A DNA stretch of 64,000 bases from Candidatus Woesearchaeota archaeon (GTDB taxonomy: Archaea > Nanobdellota > Nanobdellia > UBA10117 > ARS21). The DNA lies in the NCBI GenBank assembly GCA_964344705.1, contig CAYFOG010000002.1:25502-89501 (forward strand). Direction: 5' to 3'. This document shows positions 2,766-61,915 of the stretch, in pieces. Within the stretch, counting starts at the first letter, position 1. The number at the start of each line of letters is the position of its first letter. The position numbers and the translations under genes are program-made. The notes beneath the pieces were generated by a model that was given only the letters and a program-made list of their open reading frames with translations, had not been told where the DNA came from and did no database searches.

Positions 2766-2784
2766 TTCGTTTTTTAAGTTTTAG

Positions 2785-3141
2785 TTGTACGATTTAACTA
2801 TGAGTTTGGATGAAATTCTTTTCGTTTCGTGGGAGGATACTTCCAGGAATATTTCTGATCGAGGACGCGAACTTAGATTTGCTAGAAAGTTTTGGAAAAA
2901 CATGATGGGTTTAATTAAAATTTCAGGTATTCATTCACATGCGTTTAAAGGAAAGGAAGTTGAAGTGCTTTATGAGCTTATTGAGGATTTATCTGAAGAA
3001 TCAGGATTTACGGTTAAACAGCAAGATGATGTAAATCCAGTTGCAGAAATTTATACTGGAGGAATTTTGCTGGGCAGAATCACTAGCAATCACCGTTCAG
3101 GATACAAACCTTTTGAACGAGTATATCGTCCAGGCTTTTAA
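2785..3141 (+). CDS. Hypothetical protein (118 aa; alternative start at 2800)
   Basis: ORF between asnS and tRNA-Asn. No recognisable motif. Confidence 0.4.
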   Translation: MYDLTMSLDEILFVSWEDTSRNISDRGRELRFARKFWKNMMGLIKISGIHSHAFKGKEVEVLYELIEDLSEESGFTVKQQDDVNPVAEIYTGGILLGRITSNHRSGYKPFERVYRPGF

Positions 3142-3182
3142 TAAGAAACCTTTTAAAACAAAGATTTGACATATTTTCTAGT

Positions 3183-3254
3183 GCCAACGTAGCTTAGTGG
3201 TAGAGCGCATGGCTGTTAACCATGAGGTCGGAGGTTCGACCCCTCCCGTTGGCG
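3183..3254 (+). tRNA. tRNA-Asn (anticodon GTT)
   Basis: Cloverleaf read by eye. Acceptor GCCAACG/CGTTGGC, D arm GCTT-AGTGGTA-GAGC. Anticodon stem CATGG/CCATG with loop CTGTTAA gives GTT. T arm GGAGG-TTCGACC-CCTCC. Discriminator G; CCA not encoded. Confidence 0.85.
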
Positions 3255-3255
3255 C

Positions 3256-3729
3256 TTATATTCTTGTTCTTAAAATTTGTAAAATATGGTCTATGTCTTG
3301 TAATTCTTCAGGAGCACAGACTATCTCATCACCATTAATTACTGAAGAAGAGTAGGCTTCTAAGTCGGCTAATAACGAACCTTCACCCATACTATCAAAG
3401 AATCCGGGCCATTCTCCAAGAAAGGTTTCCAAATGAATGGATTTTGCACTGTAATTTATTCTTTTATTAGTGTGCGTAATTACAAAACTTATTTCTTTAT
3501 CAGAATTTGGCAAATTAAAGAAATATTTTGTTCCTGTTTCTGATTTAATGCGATAAGGCATCTTCTGGAGTTTTGTTGAAGTATAATCAAGATAGTAAGC
3601 CATTTCTTCAAAAAGGATCAAATTATCTAGAGTTTCCAGTTTCTTTTCAGCGATTTTGGGCATATTTACCTTGCGATTTGACATAGTTGAAACTAATAGA
3701 ATTATTATAAAAATATTGTTTTTAGTCAT
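3256..3729 (-). CDS. Hypothetical protein (157 aa; internal alternative starts possible)
   Basis: ORF immediately downstream of tRNA-Asn on the opposite strand. No recognisable motif. Confidence 0.4.
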   Translation of the reverse strand: MTKNNIFIIILLVSTMSNRKVNMPKIAEKKLETLDNLILFEEMAYYLDYTSTKLQKMPYRIKSETGTKYFFNLPNSDKEISFVITHTNKRINYSAKSIHLETFLGEWPGFFDSMGEGSLLADLEAYSSSVINGDEIVCAPEELQDIDHILQILRTRI

Positions 3730-3822
3730 TAAAAAATAGAAAAGACGGCTTTTACACCGTCTCCTGAAACTATTACTTACAGAATAATCTCAATTCCCAA
3801 ACTAATATTCATTTAAGAAGTA

Positions 3823-4017
3823 TTACTCTGCTAATTCTACGTTTTGTGCTTGTTTCCCTCTTTCTGCATCAACTGCATCAAAGGTAACATTGTCACCCTC
3901 TCTCAAGTTCTTTTCATCTTTGATGGCTGTTTGATGTACAAAGTAATCTGTACCATCTTCACCTTCAATGAATCCGAAACCTTTTGTTGGGTTGAACCAC
4001 TTTACTGTTCCTTTCAT
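3823..4017 (-). CDS. csp: Cold-shock protein (CspA family, S1-like OB fold)
   Basis: [32 protein letters not shown] contains the RNP1-like KGFGFI and RNP2-like VHQ motifs of cold-shock domains. Start placed at the internal Met (MKGTVKWFN). Confidence 0.85.
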
Positions 4018-4080
4018 TTTATTTGGTACCAAGAACGAATTCTTGATAGTTTAGCTTGATTAGTTGGTTTAAAAGAGTAT

Positions 4081-4515
4081 CTATTTCCTAAACTCTTTCA
4101 GAACGATTGTTGTATTTGTGTTTTCTACACTAGGCATAGTTCTTAGCTTTGTCATAATTAATGAATGTAATTCTTCAATGTCTTTTACACAAACTTTTGC
4201 GATGATATCATAGTCTCCTGTTATTTGGTAAACTTTGTCGACTGCTTCTACTTTTAGAAGCTCATTACAGATTTTATTTTGATCTGCAAGTCTTCCTGCG
4301 CGAATTGCTAATCGTGCTGAGATGTCCTTTCCAAGCTTTTTCCGATTTACAATTACTGTATATTTTGAGATAATTCCTTCTGATTCTAATTTCTTAATTC
4401 GGTTATGGACTGTCGTAATTGGAATATTCAATTCCCGAGAAATTTGCTGAGTTGTGTTTTTTGCGTTCCTTTTTAGAATGCTTAGAATGTCCATATCTTT
4501 GTCATCTAGCTTCAT
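4081..4515 (-). CDS. lrp: Lrp/AsnC-family transcriptional regulator
   Basis: 144 aa from ATG 4515. N-terminal HTH: DILSILKRNAKNTTQQISRELNIPITTVHNRIKKLESEGII. C-terminal RAM domain region: VKDIEELHSLIMTKLRTMPSV. Confidence 0.85.
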   Translation of the reverse strand: MKLDDKDMDILSILKRNAKNTTQQISRELNIPITTVHNRIKKLESEGIISKYTVIVNRKKLGKDISARLAIRAGRLADQNKICNELLKVEAVDKVYQITGDYDIIAKVCVKDIEELHSLIMTKLRTMPSVENTNTTIVLKEFRK

Positions 4516-5909: not shown

Positions 5910-5990
5910 TGGGCGATGAATTGGGAATCGTCCGAGTTATTGTTGAGTAAAAGATTAAAGTTTTAAAGTAAAAATTTTGAGCAATTCTAG

Positions 5991-6065
5991 GCCCCTATGG
6001 TGTAGTTCGGTCAATCATTCCAGATTCTCAATCTGGCGACTCGGGTTCAAATCCCGGTAGGGGCG
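5991..6065 (+). tRNA. tRNA-Glu (anticodon CTC)
   Basis: Acceptor GCCCCTA/TAGGGGC. D region TGGTGTAGTTCGGTCAATCAT matches the archaeal tRNA-Glu pattern. Anticodon stem CCAGA/TCTGG with loop TTCTCAA. T arm TCGGG-TTCAAAT-CCCGG. Discriminator G. Confidence 0.85.
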
Positions 6066-6122
6066 TCCTATATTCTGTCTTAAAAAAACCTTTTTATAAC
6101 TTTAGTTGCTCGTTTTTATACC

Positions 6123-7211
6123 ATGTCAGACAAATATGATGGTGAAGTTAGCACTCCAAAGACAGGGAAAAGAGATTTTGAAAGGGATACTGCTCGAGGA
6201 AAGGCACTAAGAGAAGACTTTCTAAATTCAACTCATAGTACCAGATGTCCTGAAATTGATATGATTTTTCAAGATGGTTCACATGTAAATATTCCACAAG
6301 AATATCAAGGAAGAAATTTAGGAACAAGAAGTCTTTATGAAGGAATCCGGCACGACTGGGAAACAAATTCACCAATTAGTCCGGCTCCACACAGCTATAG
6401 CCCTGTTGGAGAAATTGATTCTTCAAAATTATTTGGACTAATGTCTGAAATTACTCGGATTCGAGACAGAGTTGGACGAAGTAAGACTAAAATTGATAGC
6501 GCTAAAATTGCTTCACAAGTATTCAAATCAGTAAGAGCTGAAACTCAAGTTCATCCAAATGATTTGTTTGATGATGATTGGGAAACTTATGAACAAATTC
6601 TTGAAGGTTATCCGTTTGCAAGATATAGATTAAATATTGATATGGAAGACGGTCTTGATCAACACAAGAGATTAATTTCCTTTACTCACGGAGAGGTTAC
6701 AGTCTTTGCAGATGATAATAATTATTTTGCTCAAAACAGCAACATTTTCTGGTATCAAAATGGACTTTTAATGTTGGGTTCAACCTTAGATACTTCAAAA
6801 GGTGAAGCAATCAATGATGATGTTTTGGTTTTTGCTGATGAAAATGAAATCGATAATACAGATTTTCATAGAGTTAACTCTGCATTTTATGATGCGCTTC
6901 ACAAACAAGGGAGACATTTTGAAACAGATATGACTATGATGCATTTGAGACATCTGTATGAGGATAACAATGTTTCTTCGCTAGGTAATCGCTTGAAGGC
7001 ATCGGCGCCAATGACTGAACTTTCTAGCGGTTCATCTGCTGAAAGATTAACAATGAATCTGTTAATTAAAAAGACACTTGATGATTTTGTCAAAACTCAA
7101 AATAAGAGATTAATTACTGATTCTGATTTTGAAGAATATCTTAAAGAAGGAATAACTCAAATTCAAAGGGACTTAGTTCGAGGAAATAAACCACTGTACA
7201 AACTTGAGTGA
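6123..7211 (+). CDS. Hypothetical protein (362 aa)
   Basis: Long clean ORF starting 58 nt after tRNA-Glu. No recognisable catalytic motifs. Confidence 0.5.
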   Translation: MSDKYDGEVSTPKTGKRDFERDTARGKALREDFLNSTHSTRCPEIDMIFQDGSHVNIPQEYQGRNLGTRSLYEGIRHDWETNSPISPAPHSYSPVGEIDSSKLFGLMSEITRIRDRVGRSKTKIDSAKIASQVFKSVRAETQVHPNDLFDDDWETYEQILEGYPFARYRLNIDMEDGLDQHKRLISFTHGEVTVFADDNNYFAQNSNIFWYQNGLLMLGSTLDTSKGEAINDDVLVFADENEIDNTDFHRVNSAFYDALHKQGRHFETDMTMMHLRHLYEDNNVSSLGNRLKASAPMTELSSGSSAERLTMNLLIKKTLDDFVKTQNKRLITDSDFEEYLKEGITQIQRDLVRGNKPLYKLE

Positions 7212-7214
7212 TAA

Positions 7215-7571
7215 TTATTCTTTCAATAATCTTTGAATCTTAAAATTTCTCATTAAGTAATATGATGCGACGGTTGGGTTATTTACCATAAAATGTAATC
7301 CTGTAGATTGAGAATTTCTTTTCAATGCTTCGTCTAATACTTCTTCCATAATTGTTCTGTAGTTTTCATCATCTCTGTTTTCCAAATATGTATTAATCAA
7401 AGTGTCTTCTTCTTCTTTTGAGAACGGTTTACTTATTTGAACTTTATAGATGTCTTTATCATCAATAAGACTATACTTGTGCTTAACATCTTTTTCTAGA
7501 ATTTCAAAAATTGGTTCTAGTGAATTCAATTGTTCATTGCTTAACATTTCTACTCTTTTGTCTAATTCCAT
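7215..7571 (-). CDS. Hypothetical protein (118 aa), acidic
   Basis: ORF convergent with the 6123 gene, 3 nt gap between their stops. No motif recognised. Confidence 0.4.
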   Translation of the reverse strand: MELDKRVEMLSNEQLNSLEPIFEILEKDVKHKYSLIDDKDIYKVQISKPFSKEEEDTLINTYLENRDDENYRTIMEEVLDEALKRNSQSTGLHFMVNNPTVASYYLMRNFKIQRLLKE

Positions 7572-7614
7572 TTTAACAGGGTTGGGATGATTGTTGAGTT
7601 ATTAAAGGTTCCGT

Positions 7615-8040
7615 ATGTGTATAATAGTTAATACTAATATTTATATTACACAGTTGCCTGATTTTGGTATGGATGATGAATTTCTCAAGGAAGCTGAAGA
7701 ATTTTTTGAAAAATATTCTGCAGGAATAATTGAGACAACCGCAATTTATGAAAATGGCGTTCTTGAATGCGGATCAATTTTGTATAACTTTGAAATTTCA
7801 CCAGACTATGTTCGAGCTTTTGATAAGAAACAAGAGGGCAAAGAAGTATTTTACTGCTCAAGACGATATTCAAGACTTTGCCGAGAACAGGCACTATTAG
7901 ACGGTTTGTTGGCTATAAGTCATATGCTTCCTGAAATTGGTGCAAAACCTCTGGAAAAAATTGTTAATCAAGCAACACAAGTAGTTCAGTCTGGACTTTT
8001 TGATGAAAACTCATCTCTTAATACGTCTTTTGATCCGTGA
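7615..8040 (+). CDS. Hypothetical protein (141 aa; alternative start at 7666, MDDEFLKEAEEFF)
   Basis: ORF. Its 3' end overlaps the convergent membrane-protein gene by 30 nt. Confidence 0.4.
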   Translation: MCIIVNTNIYITQLPDFGMDDEFLKEAEEFFEKYSAGIIETTAIYENGVLECGSILYNFEISPDYVRAFDKKQEGKEVFYCSRRYSRLCREQALLDGLLAISHMLPEIGAKPLEKIVNQATQVVQSGLFDENSSLNTSFDP

Positions 8041-13732: not shown

Positions 13733-13835
13733 TCCCTCCGGCCGGAATTGAACCAGCAACCTTCCGATATCTGCTGGGACTGAATCCCAGTAACCAACTA
13801 CAGTCGGACGCTCTACCAGATTGAGCTACAGAGGG
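13733..13835 (-). tRNA. tRNA-Tyr (anticodon GTA) with a ~29-nt canonical intron after position 37
   Basis: Minus strand CCCTCTG-TA-GCTC-AATCTGGTA-GAGC-G-TCCGA-CTGTAG[TTGGTTACTGGGATTCAGTCCCAGCAGAT]A-TCGGA-AGGTT-GCTGG-TTCAATT-CCGGC-CGGAGGG-A. The intron holds the hairpin CTGGGATTCAGTCCCAG. Confidence 0.7.
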
Positions 13836-24578: not shown

Positions 24579-24602
24579 GCCATGCGAAAAAGGGATACGT
24601 AC

Positions 24603-25046
24603 ATGGGAAAGAAGTCTAGAGGACTAAATGCTGGAAAGAAATTAGCCAAGCGTAGACAAAAGTTCAAGTGGGCAGATAAGTGGTATACTCGTAGAGCTCT
24701 GGGACTTAAAGTTAAATCAGATCCTCTTAAGGGAAGCCCACAGGCGCGAGCGATTGTTCTTGAAAAAAGACAAGTAGAAGCTAAGCAACCTAATTCTGCT
24801 TTGCGAAAAGCTGCTCGAGTTCAATTAATTAAGAATGGGAGACAAGTTACAGTTTTCCTTCCAGGAAATCTTGCAAGTAAATTCATCGATGAACACGATG
24901 AAATTATGATTGAAGGAATGGGAGGTCACATGGGTAAATCTAAAGGTGACATTCCAAATATCAGATGGCAAGCATTCAAAGTTAATAGACAATCTCTACC
25001 TCAACTGGTAAAAGGTAAGGTAGAAAAGACAATTGGTAGAAAGTAA
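24603..25046 (+). CDS. rps12: Ribosomal protein S12 (S23e)
   Basis: Start at [37 protein letters not shown] is the conserved S12 core. Confidence 0.9.
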
Positions 25047-25047
25047 G

Positions 25048-25797
25048 ATGGCTGAAAAAACAACTAAGACAACAAAGGAAAAACCTGCTAAGGTTGAAGC
25101 AAAGCCAAAAGCTGAAAAGGTTGAAAAGCCAAAGAAGGAAACTAAGCCAAAGAAAATTATTGCTAAATTAAATCCTTTCCAACAAAATATCAAAGATATG
25201 AAAATGTTTGGAAGATGGACAACTCATGATGTTATTGTTTCAGATCCGGGTTTGAAGGCTTACATGAATCTTGATCCAGTATTGGTCCCAACTTCACTTG
25301 GTAGATTTACAGCAAAACAATTCTGGAAGTCTAAGAGACCAATTGTTGAAAGACTTATGATTAGAATGTTTGTTGCAGGACACAGAGGTAAGAAACACGT
25401 TCGAACTTCTGGACACATGACTGGAATGAAAGTTAATGCTTACAATGTTATAATCAAAACCTTTGAAATTCTTGAAGAGAAGACAAAAGGAAACCCTGTT
25501 CAAGCAGTTGTTGATGCTATTGAAGCAGCAGCACCTCGGGAAGGAATTACAACTATCGAATATGGTGGAGTAAGATATCCTCGTTCAGTTGACTTGAGTC
25601 CTCAAAAGCGAATTGATTTGGCTTTGAGATGGATTACTCAGGGAGCTTACGACAAAATGGTAAAATCAAAAGGTAAGAAGCGAATTGAACAAACTTTGGC
25701 AGAACAAATTCTGGCAACAATTAATTATGATCAACAAGCTTCATTTGCATACTCAAAGAAGTATGACTTAGAGCGACAAGCTAAGGCAGCAAGATAA
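25048..25797 (+). CDS. rps7: Ribosomal protein S7 (S5e) with Lys-rich N-terminal extension
   Basis: Start MAEKTTKT... two nt after the S12 stop. About 45-aa K/E/P-rich extension, then the S7 core FGRWTTHDV ... RMFVAGHRGKK ... AVVDAIEAAAPREG. Confidence 0.85.
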   Translation: MAEKTTKTTKEKPAKVEAKPKAEKVEKPKKETKPKKIIAKLNPFQQNIKDMKMFGRWTTHDVIVSDPGLKAYMNLDPVLVPTSLGRFTAKQFWKSKRPIVERLMIRMFVAGHRGKKHVRTSGHMTGMKVNAYNVIIKTFEILEEKTKGNPVQAVVDAIEAAAPREGITTIEYGGVRYPRSVDLSPQKRIDLALRWITQGAYDKMVKSKGKKRIEQTLAEQILATINYDQQASFAYSKKYDLERQAKAAR

Positions 25798-35928: not shown

Positions 35929-36462
35929 ATGAAATCTGGAATCAGAGCAATTGATTTTATGAACCACAAAGTGGTTACTGTTACTCCAGATATGACTATA
36001 AGAGAGGCAGCGAAACTTATGAATGTCCATCGAGTTGGTGGCGTTCCTGTCTGTGACGGTGGAGACTTGGTTGGTTTACTAACTGAGAGAGATATTATGA
36101 TGAGAGTTACTGCGCTTGACAAACTTCCGAGTTCTTTGACAGTTAGTCAAATTATGCAGAGTCCTTTGAAAGCTACTGGAACTAAGTTTGAAGATTTGTC
36201 AAGTCTTGCTCGAAAGATGAGAGAACATAGTATTTCAAAAATTCCAATTGTTGACAGTGGAAAGTTGATTGGTATTGTTACAAACAAAGATGTTGTAGCT
36301 CATGCGCCGGATTTGCTAGATACATTTATTGAAAGATTGGCGGCCAGTGGCAAAGGTATGGCAGGTCATCCTGCGGCGTTTGGACAGTGTGAGGATTGTG
36401 GTTCTCACGGACATTTACATTTTCAAATGGATCAATTCCTCTGTGACGATTGTACTACTTAA
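35929..36462 (+). CDS. CBS-domain pair protein with C-terminal Cys4 zinc ribbon
   Basis: Two CBS motifs (VVTVTPDMTIREAAKLM... and ISKIPIVDSGKLIGIVT). C-terminal CEDCGSHGHLHFQMDQFLCDDC. Confidence 0.7.
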   Translation: MKSGIRAIDFMNHKVVTVTPDMTIREAAKLMNVHRVGGVPVCDGGDLVGLLTERDIMMRVTALDKLPSSLTVSQIMQSPLKATGTKFEDLSSLARKMREHSISKIPIVDSGKLIGIVTNKDVVAHAPDLLDTFIERLAASGKGMAGHPAAFGQCEDCGSHGHLHFQMDQFLCDDCTT

Positions 36463-37214
36463 ATCAAAACTCCAATAAGATTTCTTAATCCTTGCGCAAA
36501 TCCTAAAACAAATATTGCGATTAGAATTAAATTTGAGAATTCTTTTTCCTCACTCTTATTTAGTAAATAAAGAATTGGTACTATTATTGCTAATTTTAAT
36601 GGAATAAATGAAAAGGGTGAGCCTGTTTGTTCGATTACAAATCTTGGTAGGATGTGCTTCTCAAATCCTCCGAATATTGATAGAATTAATGCTGTATTGA
36701 CTGCGTCAAAGAGTTGTCCAGTGTACGCGAAAAGTGTTAGATTATTGGTAAACCATTCCTGTTTGAGATTCTTTGCGATAAGTATGCTAATCCAAGTTCC
36801 TGCGATTAGACTAAATATTATGCTCGGTAAGTAGTTCAAATTGTGGAAAGTTGGCATTCCATAATTTAGTGGAATAAATATCAGCGCAAGGACTCCAATT
36901 AATCTTGGTCTGCTTAAAAGCAATCCTGCCAAAAAGATTGCAGTCATTGTTAGATATATTCCTGGACTAACACTTAGGAAATTTTTGGGAATTAAATTTA
37001 CATCAACATATGCTCTGACTAATGCACCGAGAAAAATGTACGGAATTAAATCTATAGCTAAAGCGGAATTAATTTTTATGTTCTTTTTCTGAAAAATTTT
37101 ATGAATTAGATACAATCCTCCGAAAGCTAGAAGTGCATAAGTTAGTGTGTTTACTATATTATATTCATAAGTTGCACTGAATGGCTCAATAAAATATTTC
37201 TCTAGAAGTGCCAT
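36459..37214 (-). CDS. Polytopic integral membrane protein (251 aa), function unknown
   Basis: About 7-8 TM helices. Its start overlaps the 3' end of the P/Q-rich protein gene by 13 nt on the same strand. Confidence 0.5.
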   Translation of the reverse strand: MALLEKYFIEPFSATYEYNIVNTLTYALLAFGGLYLIHKIFQKKNIKINSALAIDLIPYIFLGALVRAYVDVNLIPKNFLSVSPGIYLTMTAIFLAGLLLSRPRLIGVLALIFIPLNYGMPTFHNLNYLPSIIFSLIAGTWISILIAKNLKQEWFTNNLTLFAYTGQLFDAVNTALILSIFGGFEKHILPRFVIEQTGSPFSFIPLKLAIIVPILYLLNKSEEKEFSNLILIAIFVLGFAQGLRNLIGVLI

Positions 37215-37702
37215 CCGCTATCTTCTTCCTCTTCCTCTTCTTGAGGTTGTCTTCTTAGCTGTTCTGGTTGCTGTAAAGATTGTGGTTGTTCATAACTTGG
37301 TTGAGGTTGAGGTTGAGGTTGCGCTGGTTGGATTGGCTGTTGAGGATTGAACGGATTTACTTGCGGTCTTGCTGGTTGGGGTTGTACTGGTTGCGGTCTT
37401 GGTTGAGCATTTGATCTGCTCTCGAGTGCAGACATACGCTGAGAAATTGATTCAACATTTCTTCGTAATTGCTCAAGAGTTGAATTGAGCATTTGAACAC
37501 TCCTTTGGATTGAATCAAGTTTTCCGTTGCTCGGTGCTACAGAAGGTATTTGTTTAAATCCCGATGATTCAGAACTTGAGTGCTCCATGTCTGCAGACGG
37601 TCCTGGAACGGCCGTTCCGCTTGGTTTTCCAAATTTTTCATCAAAATGGGGAAAATCTTCTTTCTTTTTCTTCAAAGGATTGATTTTATCCAGAAGTGCC
37701 AT
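37202..37702 (-). CDS. P/Q-rich low-complexity protein with N-terminal coiled coil and C-terminal EEEEEEDSGWHF
   Basis: IQRSVQMLNSTLEQLRRNVESISQRMSALE heptads, then the AQPRPQPVQPQPARPQVNPFNPQQPIQPAQPQPQPQP repeats. Confidence 0.5.
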   Translation of the reverse strand: MALLDKINPLKKKKEDFPHFDEKFGKPSGTAVPGPSADMEHSSSESSGFKQIPSVAPSNGKLDSIQRSVQMLNSTLEQLRRNVESISQRMSALESRSNAQPRPQPVQPQPARPQVNPFNPQQPIQPAQPQPQPQPSYEQPQSLQQPEQLRRQPQEEEEEEDSGWHF

Positions 37703-37786
37703 GCTATTTGGTGCTTTGGAAGCTTAAATAATTTGCGTAGATAGAACATTGGTAAAGTATTAATATAATCAGAGCAATTTGCTAAT

Positions 37787-39184
37787 ATGTCCAGAAAAAA
37801 GTCTAAAGGTTCTTCCAAGCATGAAGAAGCGATTTGGGATAAGCAAGGCTCCAAGGAAATTCATTATGAGAATTTTGCTGAAGGTATTGAAAAATTCTAT
37901 TTCTGGGTGACTGATTTTCTTGAAAGCAATCTTCACTATAAGCTTAGCAAAATTGAAGATACTTCATTTGCAAGTGTTGGTTCTTCTCAATGGGGTTTGA
38001 TTGAACAGCGAAAGTCAATTCAGCAAGATAAGGCTGCTCAATATATGGGTACAATTGGTGGAATGATTAAGAGCATGATGCAGATTTACAAGGAATTGAA
38101 AATTATTGATGAACGTCTCAATTATTACAAAGAGGCAGATTCTGGAAGCGTTGCGGCGGAAATTGCTCTGAAATCTCTTTGGATTGATCTGGTGGAAGGC
38201 GGAGCAAAGCAACCTACTTCCGTTCTTGGATTGGCATCACAAGTTGGTTTTGTTACTTTACCTGATTTATTCTTTAATATAAATCCAAAAGATGAAAAGT
38301 CTGTTGACAAAACGGTTGATGCTGCTAAACTAGAAACGAATGTTCAAGTTAAGAATATCTTGAAACGAAAGTTAAAGCAATATATGACTTGGAGAACTCG
38401 AACTAAATCAGAACTGGCGACTCGGCGTTATTTCAATATCAAATATTTGGCTCAGCACTTTAATGTAATTAAGATGTATGCGGATTGGGCAAAACCATAC
38501 TTACAAAATATTGGTAGATTGAATCAAAATGTTCAAGAAGAATACTCTTACCAATTGCTTGAGGGAAGTGAAAGTACTGTTGCAGATATTGAATTAATGG
38601 GTCAACGATTGATTAAAGAGCGGGACTCAGAATTTGAACATGTTTTTCCAGTCATGGTCGTGAGCTTTCATCATAGAACTCGACCTGTTAGCGCCTATCA
38701 ACAAGAGCAACATCGTGGAAGTTTACACATTGGCAGAGTTGAAATAACTTTTACAAGTTATCTTGCAAACAAAAAAGGAATTGAGGAGTATAAAAACAAA
38801 AAGAAAACTGAAACTTTTAAACTTCTTAAGACGGTTGATGCTTCTATGAGTGCTTTGTTAGACAGTCCAGACTCGAAGGCTGAGTTTGAAGGTTATCTGA
38901 AGGAGGCTGAAGGAATTGAGGAGAAGCAAGCAGAAGATGGGAAAAAGGTTAAAGGGCGATCTGGCTTTGGAGGTTTTGAGATTTTTATTCCGGAATATTT
39001 TAAGAAATCACGACGAGAGGCTCGTTCAAAGGCGAAAAGTGGGAAGGCGGCTCTGCTAGCTGCAAGAAAAAAGGCTGAAGAAACAACTACTGAAAAGGCA
39101 CTTGCTAAAATTATTGCAAAAGAAGATGTTGATACTATTTTCAAGACCTTTAAGATTGTCCACGGAATGTTGGTAAGAAATTAA
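37787..39184 (+). CDS. Hypothetical protein (465 aa), first gene of a co-directional four-gene block
   Basis: Long ORF with a Lys-rich C-terminal tail. No enzymatic motif recognised. Confidence 0.5.
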   Translation: MSRKKSKGSSKHEEAIWDKQGSKEIHYENFAEGIEKFYFWVTDFLESNLHYKLSKIEDTSFASVGSSQWGLIEQRKSIQQDKAAQYMGTIGGMIKSMMQIYKELKIIDERLNYYKEADSGSVAAEIALKSLWIDLVEGGAKQPTSVLGLASQVGFVTLPDLFFNINPKDEKSVDKTVDAAKLETNVQVKNILKRKLKQYMTWRTRTKSELATRRYFNIKYLAQHFNVIKMYADWAKPYLQNIGRLNQNVQEEYSYQLLEGSESTVADIELMGQRLIKERDSEFEHVFPVMVVSFHHRTRPVSAYQQEQHRGSLHIGRVEITFTSYLANKKGIEEYKNKKKTETFKLLKTVDASMSALLDSPDSKAEFEGYLKEAEGIEEKQAEDGKKVKGRSGFGGFEIFIPEYFKKSRREARSKAKSGKAALLAARKKAEETTTEKALAKIIAKEDVDTIFKTFKIVHGMLVRN

Positions 39185-39185
39185 A

Positions 39186-39686
39186 ATGATTGGTCCAAAA
39201 GAATGGGAAGAATTGAAAAAAGAAATTGCTAAGCTTGATCCAATCTTGAGAATAAAGCGTTTGAAGCAAGCTCTAATTCGTACAGCAGATTCTAAGATTA
39301 AACGTGAAATTGATGAGTTGATTCTGAAAGCTGAGTCTGATTCTATTGAATTTTTTGATTCTCGAAAAGTGAAGCCTGTGTTGCCTCAACACTCACTTGA
39401 AAAATTAGTTAGTGATCGAAAATTTGAAGAGGGGCGACAAGATAGAAAGATTGAAGATATTGCAAGTGAAGAAAGCGGTTTGACTGATTCTGAAGTTAAA
39501 CAAAAAGCTGCTGATTATGATCCAAATAAGAAAAATGAGTTTTATGAATCTGATACGAGTGAAAGTATAACTTACAAGCCGGTCGAGCACGATGCTTTCG
39601 GTGTTAAGTTTGAAGACAACAGCTTAAATAGAAGAAAGGACTATGTAAATAAGGAGGAAGTTGATTTTAATGGCGCACGATCATAA
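39186..39686 (+). CDS. Hypothetical charged/helical protein (166 aa)
   Basis: Starts 2 nt after the upstream stop and overlaps the downstream gene by 26 nt, indicating operon organisation. Confidence 0.45.
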   Translation: MIGPKEWEELKKEIAKLDPILRIKRLKQALIRTADSKIKREIDELILKAESDSIEFFDSRKVKPVLPQHSLEKLVSDRKFEEGRQDRKIEDIASEESGLTDSEVKQKAADYDPNKKNEFYESDTSESITYKPVEHDAFGVKFEDNSLNRRKDYVNKEEVDFNGARS

Positions 39687-41616
39687 TCATGGACACAATC
39701 ATCACCATCCTGAGACTCCGGAAGTTCCAAAATATTGGCATTCTATGGATTCAAAACAGTGGAGTTCTGAGGCAGACCGAGTGAAATTGGGTATTAGTAC
39801 TCCTCCGATGCAAGACCAACTTCAAAGTATTCAAGCGCGGATTCGTCAGGGTGCTACGGCAGTAGAATTGGGTTTTTTGGGTACAGGAAAGGGTTCAGCA
39901 GGACAAGGTGCTTTTACTCCCGGAACGGTTGGTATTCCTGAACGTGAAGCTATTCGAGACATTGCCAAAGTTAATGATGTTAAGGTTTCATCGGTTCATT
40001 CTTCTATGAAGATTCAAGGTTTGGCAGGTTTTGATGGTCGGCAAGGATTTAGTGAGGCTAAGCGAGCGCAAGATATGGAAGAAGTCCGACGAACAATTGA
40101 TTTTGCCGGAGATGTTACAGATGGCGGTGCGGTTGTCGTTCATACTGGAGAGTTTCCATATAGTATTCAAGGAAAGCATGGAGAGACTCCATTCAAGACA
40201 AAGAGTGGAAAACCAATTAAATTTACTGAAGGATATGTTACATCTCAACGCGCGCCGAACTATTTAATTGATATTCAAACAGGTAAGCTTGCTTCAGATA
40301 TTGGTCCAAACTTCAGAGTTAAATATTTGGAAAAGAAGCCGGGCACAGAATTGAAGTTTGAAGAAAGGACTAAAGTTTATGACGATTTTGTTAAAGATGC
40401 TAGTTTTAACTTAAAAAGTGAGGAAAGGAAACTCGCAAACATGGAAGAATTCAAAAAGTACAATCAAGGAAAAACATTAAGTGATTCTGAATATAAGAAT
40501 ACTTATGGTGATCCGGGATGGGTCGCGTTACACTTTCAAATTAAAGAAGGTATTACGCAAAGCAAATCCGATGAACTTTGGCACAAGGCAAGATATCAAG
40601 AATATAAAAATGATTTTGATCAGTCTAAGATTCAGTTAAAATTAGCAGAAGCGTTACATTCACGTTCAGGTGTTTCTGTTCCTGCTGCGGAAGGCCAGAG
40701 GCGTATTGATGATTTACGACGTAAAGTTGAGCTCTCTAGACATCATGTCAAAGCTGAAGAAGAGTATATAAAAAGATATGACCTTCAGAGAAAAAATGCA
40801 TATGAACAGCTGTATAATATTCGTCCAATCGAGGCTTATGGTATTCAAAAAACTTCTGAGTCAATTGCCGAACTAGCGCTTGATGCGGCTAAAGTTACTC
40901 GCGATAAGAAATTGAAAAATCCTTTGTTTGTTGCTCCCGAAAACTTGTGGGGTGATCAGTATGGTGCGCATCCCAAAGATTTACGAAAGATTATTGTTGA
41001 TTCTCGAGCGAAAGCTGTTGAATTTATGACTGCTGATAAAATTAAAATACATGGTGAGGAAGTTAATAATCCATTCAAAGGCAGAGTTAAGAAAGCGCTT
41101 GGACATATTCCTTCTAAATCTGAAGCAAAAAAGATTGCTGAAAATCATATCAAAGCAACGTTTGATATTGGACATGCGAATATTTGGAGAAAGTATTTTG
41201 ACGGAGATGAAAAAGAATTCAAATCTTGGATGGGTCACGAAGTTGATAAGTTGACTAAAGATGGAATAATTGGTCATGTTCATGTTTCAGATAATTTTGG
41301 ATATAATGATGAACATCTCCCTCCCGGTTATGGAAACGCTCCGATTAAAGAATTTTTGACTCATATGCAGAAATCTGGTTTTGAGAAGGAATACATTGTT
41401 GAGCCCGCTCATCATGATGTTGGGGCACTCCATGCAGGAATGGAATTTTTACAAACTCCAATTTACAGAATTGATACTCAAACTCATCGATGGACTTCTC
41501 CTGAACGATCTTATTTCGGTCAAACTCATGTTCCAGGTTTTGTTACTCCCGGATATTTACCTCACGCAGGTGGAGAAAGAAAACCAATGGTTTGGTCTGA
41601 ATTGCCGCTAGAATAA
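39661..41616 (+). CDS. His-rich xylose-isomerase-like TIM-barrel protein (sugar-phosphate isomerase / endonuclease-IV-like fold) with a ~300-aa helical insertion
   Basis: N-terminal HDHNHGHNHHHPE. Barrel motifs ATAVELGF, GGAVVVHTGEF, FDIGHANIW and IGHVHVSDNFGYNDEHLPPGYGNAPIKEF match the hxHxhD....D.H...PG.G.i signature. The motifs are separated by a long charged insertion. Confidence 0.45.
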   Translation: MILMAHDHNHGHNHHHPETPEVPKYWHSMDSKQWSSEADRVKLGISTPPMQDQLQSIQARIRQGATAVELGFLGTGKGSAGQGAFTPGTVGIPEREAIRDIAKVNDVKVSSVHSSMKIQGLAGFDGRQGFSEAKRAQDMEEVRRTIDFAGDVTDGGAVVVHTGEFPYSIQGKHGETPFKTKSGKPIKFTEGYVTSQRAPNYLIDIQTGKLASDIGPNFRVKYLEKKPGTELKFEERTKVYDDFVKDASFNLKSEERKLANMEEFKKYNQGKTLSDSEYKNTYGDPGWVALHFQIKEGITQSKSDELWHKARYQEYKNDFDQSKIQLKLAEALHSRSGVSVPAAEGQRRIDDLRRKVELSRHHVKAEEEYIKRYDLQRKNAYEQLYNIRPIEAYGIQKTSESIAELALDAAKVTRDKKLKNPLFVAPENLWGDQYGAHPKDLRKIIVDSRAKAVEFMTADKIKIHGEEVNNPFKGRVKKALGHIPSKSEAKKIAENHIKATFDIGHANIWRKYFDGDEKEFKSWMGHEVDKLTKDGIIGHVHVSDNFGYNDEHLPPGYGNAPIKEFLTHMQKSGFEKEYIVEPAHHDVGALHAGMEFLQTPIYRIDTQTHRWTSPERSYFGQTHVPGFVTPGYLPHAGGERKPMVWSELPLE

Positions 41617-41653
41617 ACCCTACCAAAATTATTTATAGTCTGAAGCATACTAT

Positions 41654-42466
41654 TTGATTATGAAGTTTAAGTACCAACGACGTGAAAATACTCTTGAATC
41701 CAAATATCCTAAACTTGATAGAGATATTGCTCGGAAGTTTGCTAAACTTGTTAGTGCTGAGCTAGGCGATTTAGTTTCAGCGCTTGTGTTGTTTGGTTCT
41801 GCTGCTCGAGGAAAATCTAAAAAGAATAGCGATATTGATATTTTACTTGTTGTAGATGATGTTCACATTAATATGAACAAAGAATTAGTTGAAACTTATC
41901 GCATTCTTGTACAGAAAGCTGTTGCAAAAGTTAATCCAGACCGACTTCACGTTCAAACGTTGCCACTAACTACTTTTTGGGAATATGTTCGTGCTGGAGA
42001 TCCTGTCGCAGTAAACATTTTACGTGATGGAATAGCATTGATTGACCGGGGTTTCTTTGACCCTCTTCAAATTCTTTTATTGAATGGTAGAATCCGCCCT
42101 TCTGGAGAATCAGTTCATACCTATTTGAATATGGCGTATTCCAGTTTGAACCGTTCAAAATCTGGATTGGATAATGCTGTTGTTGACTTGTATTGGGCGA
42201 CCATTGATGCGGCTCATGCAGCGCTTATGAGTATTGGTGAAGTTCCAACCAGTCCAAGCACAGTTGCGGATATGATTGATGAAAAGCTTGTCAAGCAGAG
42301 ATATGTGGGTAAAAAATACTCAGATATAATGCGCCATATGTATGAAGTCTCAAAGCGAATAATGAAGCGAGAGATTAGCAATCTTGATGGCAAAACATAT
42401 GACAGATATCTAAAACATGCAGAAGATTTTGTTGAAGCAATGAAGAAAGTGGTTAATCATAAGTGA
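41654..42466 (+). CDS. Pol-beta-superfamily nucleotidyltransferase-domain protein (270 aa)
   Basis: LVLFGSAARGKSKKNSDIDILLVVDD is a GS...DxD nucleotidyltransferase motif. C-terminal helical domain about 150 aa. Confidence 0.6.
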   Translation: MIMKFKYQRRENTLESKYPKLDRDIARKFAKLVSAELGDLVSALVLFGSAARGKSKKNSDIDILLVVDDVHINMNKELVETYRILVQKAVAKVNPDRLHVQTLPLTTFWEYVRAGDPVAVNILRDGIALIDRGFFDPLQILLLNGRIRPSGESVHTYLNMAYSSLNRSKSGLDNAVVDLYWATIDAAHAALMSIGEVPTSPSTVADMIDEKLVKQRYVGKKYSDIMRHMYEVSKRIMKREISNLDGKTYDRYLKHAEDFVEAMKKVVNHK

Positions 42467-43126
42467 TTAGTTTAGATATTCAATTAATTCTTCTAGAGTG
42501 TTAATGCCCATTCTTGCGCCCATTTCTGGAAGTGCGTTATTTACTAAATCAATAATTCCTGCCCTTTCAAGTTTGTTCGAAACTTGTTCAATTATTTCTT
42601 GATTTTCAGATAAATAAGCAAGATGATTTGGTTTGGTGATTATATTATTCATTAGACTGACAATTACATTCCCAACTACTGATTTCTCTTCGCCCTCTAC
42701 TTCTGTAAGATAGTCAATAGAATTTCTTAGATAATTAAGGATATTTTCAGAGCTTTCATTCATAACAAATCTTATTGGAGATAGTCCTTCACATAGATTA
42801 TTTAATAAGCTATTTAAGTTGTCAATATTTGTTGGATCTGATTGATAATTATTCATCAATTCTTTTGGAATTATTTCAGAAGAATGCATCATTAGTCCAG
42901 CTTTCAAAGGAATATTATTATTTATTTCTTCAATTGTATGATTATGACCGTAAGCTCGAGCAGTAGTTTCTAGTAGAAATTCATTAACTTTATTGTATGC
43001 GACCGGATTGTTTTCTCCTCTTACATCAATAAGTTTTTGCATTAAGTCGTAGTGTGCGCTTGTTTTGAAGTCTTCTTGCTCTTTACCAACTGCTCTGATT
43101 TGTTGTGCATATAACCATTCTGTCAT
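42467..43126 (-). CDS. Hypothetical protein (219 aa), Asn-rich
   Basis: ORF placed between the two nucleotidyltransferase paralogs on the opposite strand. Confidence 0.45.
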   Translation of the reverse strand: MTEWLYAQQIRAVGKEQEDFKTSAHYDLMQKLIDVRGENNPVAYNKVNEFLLETTARAYGHNHTIEEINNNIPLKAGLMMHSSEIIPKELMNNYQSDPTNIDNLNSLLNNLCEGLSPIRFVMNESSENILNYLRNSIDYLTEVEGEEKSVVGNVIVSLMNNIITKPNHLAYLSENQEIIEQVSNKLERAGIIDLVNNALPEMGARMGINTLEELIEYLN

Positions 43127-43218
43127 TTAATTTGTCTTAAGTTTTGATTTAAAACTATTTTGTTCTGACCTTGAAAATGTTAGAAAACATTTAAAACCAT
43201 GTGTTTCGTTTGTAGTTT

Positions 43219-45066
43219 ATGGTCAATAGTCCAAATCCTTCTCAAGATTTAACAAGTAATGAGAAATTAAAAGAGATGTTTGGTAAATTTAACGAATCTC
43301 AGCAAAGTTCTAAGCAAAAAGCTATGGATGAATTGAACAAAGTTCTTGATAAAGTTCAACCGACTGCTGAAAAGATTAAAGATTCTTTGTTAAAGCGGCA
43401 TAAGAAGGAAATACTCGGTGCAGTTTTGACTATGCGACCTTCTGCTCCAAAACCTGGTGGAAAACCTAAACTGAATCCTAATTTGATTATTGTTTCTGAA
43501 TTGAGAAATAAATCTCCAAAGGAAAAAATGACTCATATTGCAGATATTGAGAAAGATGGAAACAGTATGACTAAAACAAGCGGTCTTAGAGTAACTTCTG
43601 TTTTGCTTGAAGAGATTTGGGATTTTGCAACGCGAGGTCAATATGATATTATGCGTAGTATTGTTTCTGGAAGATTGATTCATGACGAAGGTGATTGGAT
43701 AAAATCTCTGAAAGCTGTTGAGATTCATAAAATTAAGATGCTCAAGAAATTTGAGAAATATGTTGTGTCTTATGTTATGGCTGGTTCTCTAATTCGTGGA
43801 GAGGCGACTCCCGATTCAGATATTGATGTTTCCATTGTGATTGATGATACTGATGTAACTCGAACCACTTCTAATGAATTGGTTTTACGGCTACGCGATA
43901 TTTCTGCTCGATTTGCACGTGATGCAGAGCAAGAAGTTGGTATTCGAGGGAAGCTTAATGTTCAAGTTTGGATTTTGACTCGTTTGTGGGCGGGTTTGCG
44001 AAGAGCTGAGCCAGTGTTTTATACTACAATTCGAGATGGAGTCCCTCTTTATGATCGAGGAATGTTTGCTCCGTGGAAATTAATGCTGAAACGAGGTTTG
44101 CTGACTCCAACACCGGAATCTATTCAAAAATATGTTAAGGATGGTAAAAATTATTTGAATCGAATTAAGATAAAATTCCGAGATATTGCTATTGAAGATT
44201 TATTTTGGTCAACAATCTTTCCGGCACAGGGAGTGTTAATGCTTCTGGGCGTTCCTCCAGGCAGTCCGAATCATATTTCTGGTCAGCTTCGAGAACATAT
44301 GGTCAAGAAAGGATATCTTGAGGAGAAGTATGTCAAAATTTGGGATAGATTGCATAAACTTCGGAAGGATGTTGAGTATGGAAAAGTCAAAGAAGTTAAG
44401 CTTGAAGTTATGACTAAGAATTATAAGGAGGGTGTTGAATTTGTTGAAAGACTTGAGAAGGCATACAAAGATATTGAAAAGAAACTAGTTAATTCAAAGA
44501 TTAAATCTGTTAAGGCAAAATCAATTGAAGATGTTCAGTTGGTGCTAAAGGTTGCTGGAGTCAAGGCAAGCAAGAGTGGTGTAAAGAATGCATTGAAATC
44601 TGAATTGATTTCAAAGGGTCTTGCTAGTTCAAAGTATCTTGAGTTGATTAATTCTGCTGAGAAGTTGGATAGCAACCGATCGAGTTTAACTGAAGTTGAG
44701 AGTTTGGAATTTGGTTTGGATAAAGTTAGGGATGAAACTATTGATATTATTAATGCTGAAAAAGGTTTGAATAAAGATAGGTTTAGATTAATGTTGAGAT
44801 ATGGTTCAGGTGAAAGTCAAAGAACTGCACATTTGTGGCTGTTTAATACTGAAGTGTTTATTGTAAAGATGGGTGCTGGTCAAGCTGAAATTACTAAGTA
44901 TGAAGTTGGTAAGAAAGGTGTGTTGAAAAATGGTAAACCAAGTACTTTGAAAGTTCTTGAAAAGAAATTAGCAACTTTTGATGGTGCGCCAACACAAGTA
45001 TCCACAAAAATGATTACTTCCTTGAAAGAATTGTTGGATGATAATTTAAGAATGTTTGTCGGTTAA
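43219..45066 (+). CDS. Large nucleotidyltransferase-domain protein (615 aa), paralogous to the 41654 gene
   Basis: YVMAGSLIRGEATPDSDIDVSIVIDD NTase motif. The downstream segment TIRDGVPLYDRGMFAPWKLMLKRGLL parallels ILRDGIALIDRGFFDPLQILLLNGRI of the 270-aa protein. N- and C-terminal extensions. Confidence 0.55.
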   Translation: MVNSPNPSQDLTSNEKLKEMFGKFNESQQSSKQKAMDELNKVLDKVQPTAEKIKDSLLKRHKKEILGAVLTMRPSAPKPGGKPKLNPNLIIVSELRNKSPKEKMTHIADIEKDGNSMTKTSGLRVTSVLLEEIWDFATRGQYDIMRSIVSGRLIHDEGDWIKSLKAVEIHKIKMLKKFEKYVVSYVMAGSLIRGEATPDSDIDVSIVIDDTDVTRTTSNELVLRLRDISARFARDAEQEVGIRGKLNVQVWILTRLWAGLRRAEPVFYTTIRDGVPLYDRGMFAPWKLMLKRGLLTPTPESIQKYVKDGKNYLNRIKIKFRDIAIEDLFWSTIFPAQGVLMLLGVPPGSPNHISGQLREHMVKKGYLEEKYVKIWDRLHKLRKDVEYGKVKEVKLEVMTKNYKEGVEFVERLEKAYKDIEKKLVNSKIKSVKAKSIEDVQLVLKVAGVKASKSGVKNALKSELISKGLASSKYLELINSAEKLDSNRSSLTEVESLEFGLDKVRDETIDIINAEKGLNKDRFRLMLRYGSGESQRTAHLWLFNTEVFIVKMGAGQAEITKYEVGKKGVLKNGKPSTLKVLEKKLATFDGAPTQVSTKMITSLKELLDDNLRMFVG

Positions 45067-45482
45067 AGCAATTGAACGTTTCTTACGTTTTGATGATACA
45101 TTTTTACTATTTCTTTAAGTTGTCTCAAAGTCTTTTTTCCGTTGCTATTTAGTTTTTTTCTATCTTCGGGATTTTTTAATAAGATTGCTAGCGTTCCTCG
45201 AACAACTTTTGAAGAATTGAAAGGGATTGGATAAATAAATTTTTCAATTGTCTCGTCAAGAGTTTGACCTCGTTCAATAATCTTAATATCTTTCTTCAGT
45301 GCAGAACTTATTGCTTTGGCTTTTGCTCCATTTTGTCCAACTGCTTTTTTTGCATCTCCGCTTTCAACTACAAAAATTATTGTTTCATTGACTCCGATGC
45401 AATTTATTGGTGAAACGCCAGTTTTATCTTTAAAGAAGGCCATCGTTCTGAGAGTATGATTATCTAAACTAATCGTTGGCAT
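45063..45482 (-). CDS. nusA: Archaeal NusA homolog (two KH domains)
   Basis: 139 aa. GxxG-like KH loops (VGQNGAKAKAI; VVRGTLAILLK). Conserved position after L30e at the end of the RNAP operon. Confidence 0.7.
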   Translation of the reverse strand: MPTISLDNHTLRTMAFFKDKTGVSPINCIGVNETIIFVVESGDAKKAVGQNGAKAKAISSALKKDIKIIERGQTLDETIEKFIYPIPFNSSKVVRGTLAILLKNPEDRKKLNSNGKKTLRQLKEIVKMYHQNVRNVQLL

Positions 45483-61805: not shown

Positions 61806-61915
61806 TGCCCGAGAAGAGATTTGAACTCTTGACCTCTGCATTATTGGCGCAAGTCAATCCGCGAAGATTCTTTGCGATACCAATGCAGCGCTCTACCATA
61901 CTGAGCTACCCAGGC
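61806..61915 (-). tRNA. Intron-containing tRNA, provisionally tRNA-Thr (anticodon GGT) with a ~36-nt intron
   Basis: Minus strand GCCTGGG-TA-GCTC-AGTATGGTA-GAGC-G-CTGCA-TTGGTA[TCGCAAAGAATCTTCGCGGATTGACTTGCGCCAATA]A-TGCAG-AGGTC-AAGAG-TTCAAAT-CTCTT-CTCGGGC-A. The anticodon call depends on the exact intron boundaries. Confidence 0.55.

Follow-up and report, generated by a model that had tools for sequence, protein, structure and literature searches.

PolX of bacteria and archaea joins a Pol-β nucleotidyltransferase (NTase) to a PHP phosphoesterase in one polypeptide. Endonuclease IV (EndoIV; Nfo/Apn1) serves base excision repair as an AP endonuclease and 3'-diesterase, and its Tyr72 intercalates into DNA and takes part in DNA recognition. 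Nine residues of EndoIV hold three zinc ions for the hydrolysis of phosphodiesters, and the metal site of the PHP enzymes closely resembles that of EndoIV (PMC5636811). MJ1311 of Methanocaldococcus jannaschii is listed as the predicted EndoIV homolog of that organism (PMC2770678), and it was deposited as a 'D-tagatose 3-epimerase-like protein' (PDB 3WQO). The TIM-barrel fold of this superfamily, that of the xylose-isomerase-like proteins, is also found in the D-tagatose/D-psicose 3-epimerases and in UlaE, which have a metal site of four residues, E/D/H/E, equivalent to Zn2 of EndoIV. On the NTase side, KNTase, ANT(3'')(9)/AadA and MntA have a GS...DxD catalytic core in common. The DNA analysed here is a stretch of 64,000 nt (the window), with its main features at 35929-45066. 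It contains a four-gene operon encoding a protein with an EndoIV/xylose-isomerase-like TIM barrel (TIM651), a Pol-β-type NTase (NT270) and two further proteins, A465 and B166 (Table 1). We consider it probable that these genes constitute a conserved phosphoesterase-plus-NTase module. The literature searched contained no account of the operon, of a barrel with this insertion or of the family to which A465 belongs.

The order A465, B, TIM barrel, 268-aa NTase is conserved across species. When each GTDB species was represented by one genome in a scan, 487 of these genomes had a relative of TIM651. For gene order, open reading frames (ORFs) were called in 79 non-redundant related loci and labelled by tblastn; the upstream counts refer to 71 loci with at least 2.3 kb of upstream flank and the downstream counts to 71 loci with at least 1.1 kb of downstream flank. 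A465 lies directly upstream of the TIM gene and co-directional with it in 54 of 71 loci, 40 with B between them and 14 without, and it is elsewhere in the flank in eight and absent in nine. Of the 71 loci with enough downstream flank, 47 have NT270 as the gene next after TIM (median gap, 44 nt), nine have it elsewhere in the flank, and 15 lack it. The spacing from B to TIM is mostly -17 to +10 nt. The TIM proteins of the syntenic loci are typically 32-37% identical to TIM651. When the ORFs of the flanks were clustered, only TIM (81 loci), A (66), NT (57) and B were found to recur broadly. The next commonest families encode a Na+/H+ exchanger, PEP synthase, signal peptidase II, NAD(P)HX dehydratase, TYW3 and a metallophosphoesterase, and we found no functional theme common to them. 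More generally, the module is flanked in related loci by variable housekeeping genes, such as those for RNA polymerase, NusA, EF-1α, S10, PEP synthase and TYW3, and no mobile-element genes were found near it. The G+C content of the block, 0.37-0.38, is inside the range of the window, with no compositional anomaly. The conserved unit is thus the four-gene block; the other genes that a preliminary description of this DNA had grouped with it adjoin the module in few loci and are sub-lineage neighbours. That description had proposed that an operon joining a metal-dependent barrel of the AP-endonuclease-2 fold to NTase proteins is not a textbook archaeal arrangement, and the conserved order supports this.

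Homologs of every module gene come from sources named Pacearchaeota, 'DHVE6 group', Woesearchaeota or Nanoarchaeota. By these names the lineage is DPANN (Woesearchaeota/Pacearchaeota, 'DHVE6'), not Nitrososphaeria as had first been supposed, and the module is a vertically inherited, core-genome operon of Woesearchaeota/Pacearchaeota-type DPANN archaea. The label 'uncultured Methanosarcinales archaeon' is attached to 10 of the best 80 loci (L030, L043, L046, L047, L051, L056, L059, L071, L072 and L081). Five of them, L043, L059, L072, L081 and the less similar L030, encode TIM proteins with 51-76% identity (by another count, 65-76%) to those of Woesearchaeota-labelled loci. Because these five are so close, the Methanosarcinales label is probably an assignment error, as judged from the sequences. 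One Woesearchaeota contig (L032) has two TIM-family genes, at 2464-4263 and 5969-7807, which encode proteins of 599 and 620 aa and are about 1.7 kb apart. Such duplication of the barrel gene is rare.

The structure predicted for TIM651 by AlphaFold2 (AF2) has a predicted local distance difference test score (pLDDT) of 85 and a predicted template modeling (TM) score of 0.83. Eight β/α units are formed from residues 43-175 and 387-597, and residues 1-39 and 601-651 are disordered. The model and the Foldseek matches described below confirm the TIM barrel that had been recognized from motifs alone. PF01261 (AP_endonuc_2), the sole significant Pfam match, covers residues 413-597 only (profile positions 75-246), which fits a barrel split by an insertion. 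No substitution occurs among 54 sequences of the family at nine residues, namely H113, H161, E427, D502, H505, H541, D550, H552 and E581, and all nine lie at the C-terminal ends of predicted strands β3-β8 or in the β7-α7 loop. Eleven barrel-trimmed family members were aligned by MAFFT E-INS-i with nine EndoIV sequences, that of Escherichia coli (nfo) and eight diverse annotated ones. In this alignment, the nine invariant residues share columns with H69, H109, E145, D179, H182, H216, D229, H231 and E261 of Nfo. Five of these nine Nfo ligands are named in PMC5636811. The correspondence with the EndoIV ligands was recovered only by the joint MAFFT alignment. The remaining four Nfo positions we take to be those of Hosfield et al. 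1999. TIM651 thus has all nine ligands of the trinuclear site at equivalent strand positions, in a common superfamily fold (Foldseek TM 0.64-0.65 to EndoIV structures 3aal and 8edd). Because all nine are invariant and column-matched, we infer that TIM651 would act as a phosphoesterase rather than a sugar isomerase. It is more than twice as long as EndoIV, owing to the insertion and a C-terminal tail. As a member of the EndoIV family itself TIM651 was rejected, since the profile similarity is not significant (see below), and it has no match to the NCBIfam EndoIV (nfo) model.

The nearest solved relative of TIM651 is MJ1311 (phmmer E 7.5e-6; profile hmmsearch E 1.2e-9; Foldseek TM 0.74). The two proteins share the motifs VVVH(P/T)G, TFDIGHAN and HVH..DN.GY.DEH..G.GN and the E on β8, and in the alignments obtained eight of the nine EndoIV-type ligands can be seen. 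However, MJ1311 is a single-domain barrel of 293 residues, in which the insertion between β4 and α4, the conserved tail (some 50 residues, the last of them Glu) and the GxGKGS loop described below are all absent. The similarity is significant over the C-terminal half of the barrel only, and the match transfers no activity. The D-tagatose/D-psicose 3-epimerases and UlaE have the E/D/H/E site in common with TIM651, but the D-tagatose epimerase lacks the D-x-H pair of TIM651 in the HMMER alignment, and the sugar epimerases of PF01261 lack the insertion. To our knowledge, epimerases also lack the two His ligands on β3 and β4. A mononuclear E/D/H/E sugar-epimerase site does not fit TIM651, whose family has five further invariant ligands. 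TIM651 also falls outside the characterized isomerase families: its best NCBIfam match, fructoselysine 3-epimerase, scores 20.7 bits against a cut-off of 305.

The insertion of about 210 aa (residues 177-385) is placed by the AF2 model between strand β4 and helix α4, on the catalytic face, with pLDDT mostly above 90. It comprises a four-stranded β subdomain (residues 200-239), short helices and an antiparallel hairpin of two helices, 285-334 and 342-384, of 50 and 43 residues. All 54 aligned members have it, with a length of 162-252 aa (median 215), and its sequence is poorly conserved except for D204 and G208. Since none of the 54 lacks it, the insertion is a genuine structural feature of the whole family, and an artefact of alignment can be discounted. 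The giant insertion of the preliminary description is therefore real and universal in the family, but it had been put at about 300 aa and taken for a charged coiled coil alone. Members of the family are 557-720 aa long, and 44-57 aa of this is the tail. In the tail, which is predicted to be disordered, Y602, W611, Y618, G620, P634 and W645 are conserved, with Y602, W611, Y618 and W645 present in 90-100% of sequences. The C-terminus is [L/M/I/F]-E in 54 of 54 members (LPLE, VPLE, TRLE and so on). From this pattern of conservation, the tail could be a docking peptide, an active-site cap or a site of modification. Following strand β2, again on the catalytic face, is a Gly-rich loop, ELGFxGxGKGS...TP (residues 69-87; 39865-39921), that hardly varies within the family and that EndoIV does not have. 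Like the conserved tail and its terminal Glu, it is specific to this family. Although it looks like a phosphate-binding loop, the Walker A pattern is not matched. TIM651 had also been called His-rich. The N-terminus does contain the stretch HDHNHGHNHHH (39670-39720), but only close relatives share it and distant members lack it. By this distribution it is a lineage-specific feature outside the conserved design, perhaps for metal capture.

NT270 is an intact Pol-β-type nucleotidyltransferase. Besides the NTP_transf_2 match, the GS and DxD residues are invariant, in agreement with the initial assignment. It has 1312 homologs, and its orthologs across Woesearchaeota and Pacearchaeota are 52-62% identical; the corresponding figures for TIM651 and A465, about 35% and about 38%, are far lower. 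Like KNTase and AadA, it has an N-terminal NTase and a C-terminal helical domain in 250-270 aa. The matches to KNTase, AadA, MntA and HalB are to the catalytic core only (about 35-70 residues) and are far below the curated cut-offs: MntA 30.4 bits against 60, ANT(9) 25.8 against 340 and HalB 34.6 against 190, with other ANT models lower. Many members of the family also weakly match poly(A)-polymerase and Pol-β palm models. A highly conserved segment, FWEYVRAGDPVAINILRDG...GFFDPLQ...GRIRPS, is its own. The Joint Genome Institute (JGI) names the family 'predicted nucleotidyltransferase/UPF0332 family', and the helical domain is perhaps UPF0332/HEPN-like. However, HEPN models of Pfam match only 2 of 41 members (best E 0.005), and the conserved Rx4-6H motif of HEPN was not found in the helical domain; a HEPN domain in NT270 was rejected on these two grounds. 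Nor does NT270 have a separate HEPN toxin partner, as MntA does. Type VII MntA/HepT was likewise rejected, since NT270 falls short of the MntA cut-off and is a 268-aa fusion lacking the Rx4-6H motif. Neither NT270 nor NT615, the longer NTase encoded nearby, matches Pfam tRNA_NucTransf2 or an NCBIfam CCA model, and assignment of either to the CCA-adding enzymes or another curated family was rejected.

NT615 had been described as a paralog of NT270 with the same segment following the NTase. BLASTP bears this out: across a 233-aa stretch that takes in the NTase and the helical segment behind it, the two proteins are 31% identical (E 7e-35). In NT615, these two domains occupy residues 175-415 and are flanked by extensions of about 170 aa at the N-terminus and about 200 aa at the C-terminus, to which no domain is assigned. 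No similarity was found between the extensions and A465 or TIM651. Full-length homologs of NT615 are downstream of the module in only nine other loci.

The remaining two proteins of the module have no match in Pfam, NCBIfam, PHROG or PADLOC. A465 had been termed an ORFan, but it belongs to a large family. A word-indexed search gave 104 homologs, and an exhaustive profile search of 1.84 billion representatives gave 753, 563 and 326 clusters (at 50% identity) at E<=1e-3, 1e-10 and 1e-30, respectively. The best 150 matches are full-length proteins (440-560 aa), or fragments thereof, and align along essentially the whole profile. The predicted structure (pLDDT 79) consists of a β-sheet head, two helices of 52 and 60 residues that form a hairpin whose tip is helical and conserved, and further helices at the C-terminus; a search for structural neighbours gave no informative match, and no similarity to the insertion of TIM651 was found. 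B166 is small, acidic and fast-evolving. Its family was recovered by jackhmmer in 47 related loci, and in 46 of these no other ORF stands between it and the TIM gene downstream. In some lineages B166 is absent, and A abuts TIM directly in the 14 loci mentioned above. The median isoelectric points of the A and NT families are basic, 8.8 and 9.2, whereas that of the B family is acidic, 5.4.

Table 1. Genes and protein segments of the four-gene module and its neighbourhood (positions in the 64,000-nt window).
Feature	Coordinates	Strand	Description
CBS protein	35929-36462	+	Pfam match; upstream neighbour
DUF63/AliA_AliB membrane protein	36459-37214	-	Pfam match (PF01889); upstream neighbour
P/Q-rich coiled-coil protein	37202-37702	-	Upstream neighbour
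A465	37787-39184	+	465 aa; gene 1 of module; family conserved
B166	39186-39686	+	166 aa; gene 2 of module
TIM651	39661-41616	+	651 aa; xylose-isomerase-like TIM barrel; PF01261 E 3e-16
TIM651 insertion, residues 177-385	40189-40815	+	AF2 model
TIM651 C-terminal tail, residues 601-651, then stop codon	41461-41616	+	Conserved columns; pLDDT <50
NT270	41654-42466	+	270 aa; gene 4 of module; Pol-β-superfamily NTase; NTP_transf_2 E 2.7e-9
X219	42467-43126	-	219 aa, acidic; outside conserved module
NT615	43219-45066	+	615 aa; long NT270 paralog; NTP_transf_2 E 2.7e-6

What might a phosphoesterase and an NTase do together? By analogy with PolX, we tentatively suggest that the module may act in nucleic-acid end processing or repair, a function that we hold to be possible but short of probable. 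The four products would form one cytoplasmic complex in which the coiled-coil arms of TIM651 and A465 would pair. TIM651 would hydrolyse phosphoester bonds by three-metal-ion catalysis, cleaving or cleaning a phosphodiester or a 3'-blocked end, and NT270 would then add nucleotides to the resulting 3'-OH. The module would in this way be a functionally split PolX. The analogy lies in the pairing of a Pol-β-superfamily NTase with a phosphoesterase that has nine ligands and a trinuclear metal site, and it is one of function only. In PolX both activities reside in a single chain, the phosphoesterase part is a PHP barrel with seven strands and not xylose-isomerase-like, and there are 8-kDa, fingers and thumb domains that NT270 does not have; no homology is claimed. 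More specifically, an EndoIV-type phosphoesterase that has evolved a coiled-coil arm (helices of 43-50 residues) could dock, through its dedicated coiled-coil partner A465 and the acidic adaptor B166, with the Pol-β-type NTase. Such a lineage-specific repair or end-processing machine, of a kind that has yet to be described, would do the job of PolX, or of Nfo and a polymerase, in genome-reduced DPANN archaea. We regard this fuller picture as rather unlikely to be correct.

Several observations weigh against a role in nucleic-acid processing, or against the coupling of the two enzymes. Alignment by hhalign of the TIM profile, either full or barrel only, with Nfo or with the nine-sequence EndoIV profile was not significant in global or local mode (E 0.13-0.5). 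At the Tyr72 column the DPANN proteins have M, K or another residue, in an alignment that is uncertain outside the ligand motifs. MJ1311 reportedly has the nine conserved ligands but no DNA-binding groove. The other top structural matches of TIM651 are UlaE (TM 0.70) and D-tagatose 3-epimerase (0.67), and EndoIV comes only after them. A nucleotide or a sugar phosphate could be bound by the Gly-rich GxGKGS loop of the catalytic face. The nearest solved relatives of NT270, which are AadA, KNTase, MntA and HalB, transfer AMP to small molecules or proteins and not to nucleic acids. Finally, a TATA-like box in front of NT270 could mean that the NTase is transcribed separately.

In an alternative reading, the two enzymes would write and erase a modification. 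NT270 would put AMP or another nucleoside monophosphate on a hydroxyl of a protein or small molecule, and TIM651 would hydrolyse the phosphodiester. The target could be a conserved tyrosine in the tail of TIM651 itself, with A465 and B166 as scaffold or substrate. A phosphodiesterase beside an NTase would be a logical pair of eraser and writer, and the closest relatives of NT270 include MntA, which carries out protein AMPylation, HalB and the O-adenylyltransferases of the ANT/KNTase type, of which KNTase and AadA match NT270 in both two-domain layout and size. The disordered tail offers the invariant Tyr602 and Tyr618 and the C-terminal Glu, and the Gly-rich Lys loop could hold a nucleotide phosphate. 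Nevertheless, the similarity of NT270 to these NTase families is confined to the short core and is far below their cut-offs, no HEPN toxin motif is conserved, and the two long coiled-coil arms are left without explanation. In addition, we know of no de-AMPylase with the fold of TIM651. On balance, we think such a cycle rather unlikely.

A role in sugar-phosphate or nucleotide-sugar metabolism, with TIM651 as an epimerase of the D-tagatose-3-epimerase/UlaE type and NT270 activating the sugar, is less probable still. It is suggested by the JGI name of the TIM family, 'sugar phosphate isomerase/epimerase', by UlaE and D-tagatose 3-epimerase being the best structural matches after MJ1311, and by PF01261 being the only significant Pfam match. 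However, the extra Zn1/Zn3 ligands H113, H161, H505, D550 and H552 are invariant and are typical of EndoIV and MJ1311, not of epimerases, and the curated epimerase model is matched far below its cut-off. NT270 has the Pol-β fold and is not of the PF00483 type found in sugar-1-phosphate NTases. A coiled-coil arm of 215 aa with a coiled-coil partner would be unexpected in a small-molecule pathway, and these DPANN lineages generally have little biosynthetic metabolism. The sugar-nucleotide pathway raised in the preliminary description is thus opposed by the full trinuclear EndoIV ligand set together with the Pol-β-type NTase.

The suggestion made there of a toxin-antitoxin or antivirus defence island, built around MNT/HEPN-like or Hailong-like NTases, is very improbable: NT270 and NT615 do match the PADLOC candidate models PDC-S09 (E 8e-13) and PDC-M05A and, at the domain level, HalB and MntA of NCBIfam, and the two NTase paralogs stand beside the local ORFan X219, but the scores are far below the curated cut-offs, A465, B166 and TIM651 have no PADLOC or PHROG match, no HEPN nuclease motif is conserved, the module has a core-genome distribution with stable synteny among housekeeping genes, normal composition and no mobile-element genes nearby, and the identity of NT270 across the class is the opposite of what is seen in fast-evolving defence genes. 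Known antiphage systems were rejected as candidates in the PADLOC search, Hailong HalAB among them, since the NTase core alone matches and no complete system is present.

The module probably does something that these cells cannot do without, since TIM relatives are present in at least 487 species genomes and the NTase exceeds most of its neighbours in conservation. The Woesearchaeota and Pacearchaeota are abundant symbionts that have not been cultivated; their genomes are small, and a large share of the conserved genes has no assigned function. What is new is the architecture and the partners; the EndoIV/MJ1311-type barrel and the minimal NTase are already known kinds, and no new principle is shown. 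The module nonetheless widens the known range of the EndoIV/xylose-isomerase-like barrel; neither an inserted coiled-coil arm on the catalytic face nor a coiled-coil protein as dedicated partner is known to us from any other member of the superfamily. Should the module act on a nucleic acid, a gap in the DNA or RNA maintenance of DPANN archaea would be filled, and the MJ1311-type barrels, which have been without a function since the structure of 2014, would acquire one. With four soluble proteins of ordinary size, the module is tractable in vitro.

All six ORFs named in the preliminary description are present at the coordinates that it gave. Its account of tight packing holds for the co-directional genes and for the 26-nt overlap between B166 and TIM651, which applies with the TTG start at 39661, but the gap between A465 and B166 is 1 nt rather than 2 nt. 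Public gene calls start TIM651 at the ATG at 39670, giving 648 aa and an overlap of 17 nt, and NT270 at the ATG at 41660, giving 268 aa; these are probably the true starts. TATA-like boxes are located about 20-35 nt upstream of the start codons of A465 (ttaatata, 37760-37767) and NT270 (ttatttata, at about 41624-41636). In a genome with 63% A+T they are weak evidence, and they suggest leaderless or short-leader transcripts.

Outside the window, homologs of X219 are confined to L006 and L008, the related loci nearest to it, so that three loci in all have the protein; it has no match in Pfam, NCBIfam, PADLOC or PHROGs. Of the two proteins first labelled ORFans, the label is therefore nearly right for this one and wrong for A465. 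Upstream of the module, the CBS, DUF63 and P/Q-rich genes co-occur with it in 13, 12 and 11 loci, respectively, and unrelated genes, for example those for signal peptidase II or a Na+/H+ exchanger, occupy those positions in other lineages. The P/Q-rich protein and the membrane protein, which it had been thought might belong to the same island, are thus lineage neighbours that are syntenic in 11-13 loci only. For related loci, the precomputed Pfam annotation gives the DUF63 protein the name 'AliA_AliB'. The 3' end of its gene overlaps the start of the CBS gene on the opposite strand by 13 nt, and its start overlaps the end of the gene for the P/Q-rich protein.

In this window the module, with NT615, is beside NusA, and in other lineages it is near EF-1α/S10 or NAC/Sec61β. 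The remainder of the window is housekeeping, with genes for an AspRS/AsnRS-type synthetase, IMPDH, Trm1, TFB, S7, aIF5B, GlmS, a YchF-like GTPase, NusA, L30e, RpoA'/A''/B and tRNAs. In archaea, the genes for NusA, S12 and S7 usually form one group. In this DNA about 20 kb separates NusA (45063-45482) from the S7 gene (25033-25797), which is closely preceded by an unannotated ORF of 154 aa (region 24582-25797). Two tRNA genes on the reverse strand, at 13733-13835 and 61806-61915, were found by Rfam and missed by ARAGORN. They are long, at 103 and 110 nt, and probably contain introns, which are common in archaeal tRNA genes.

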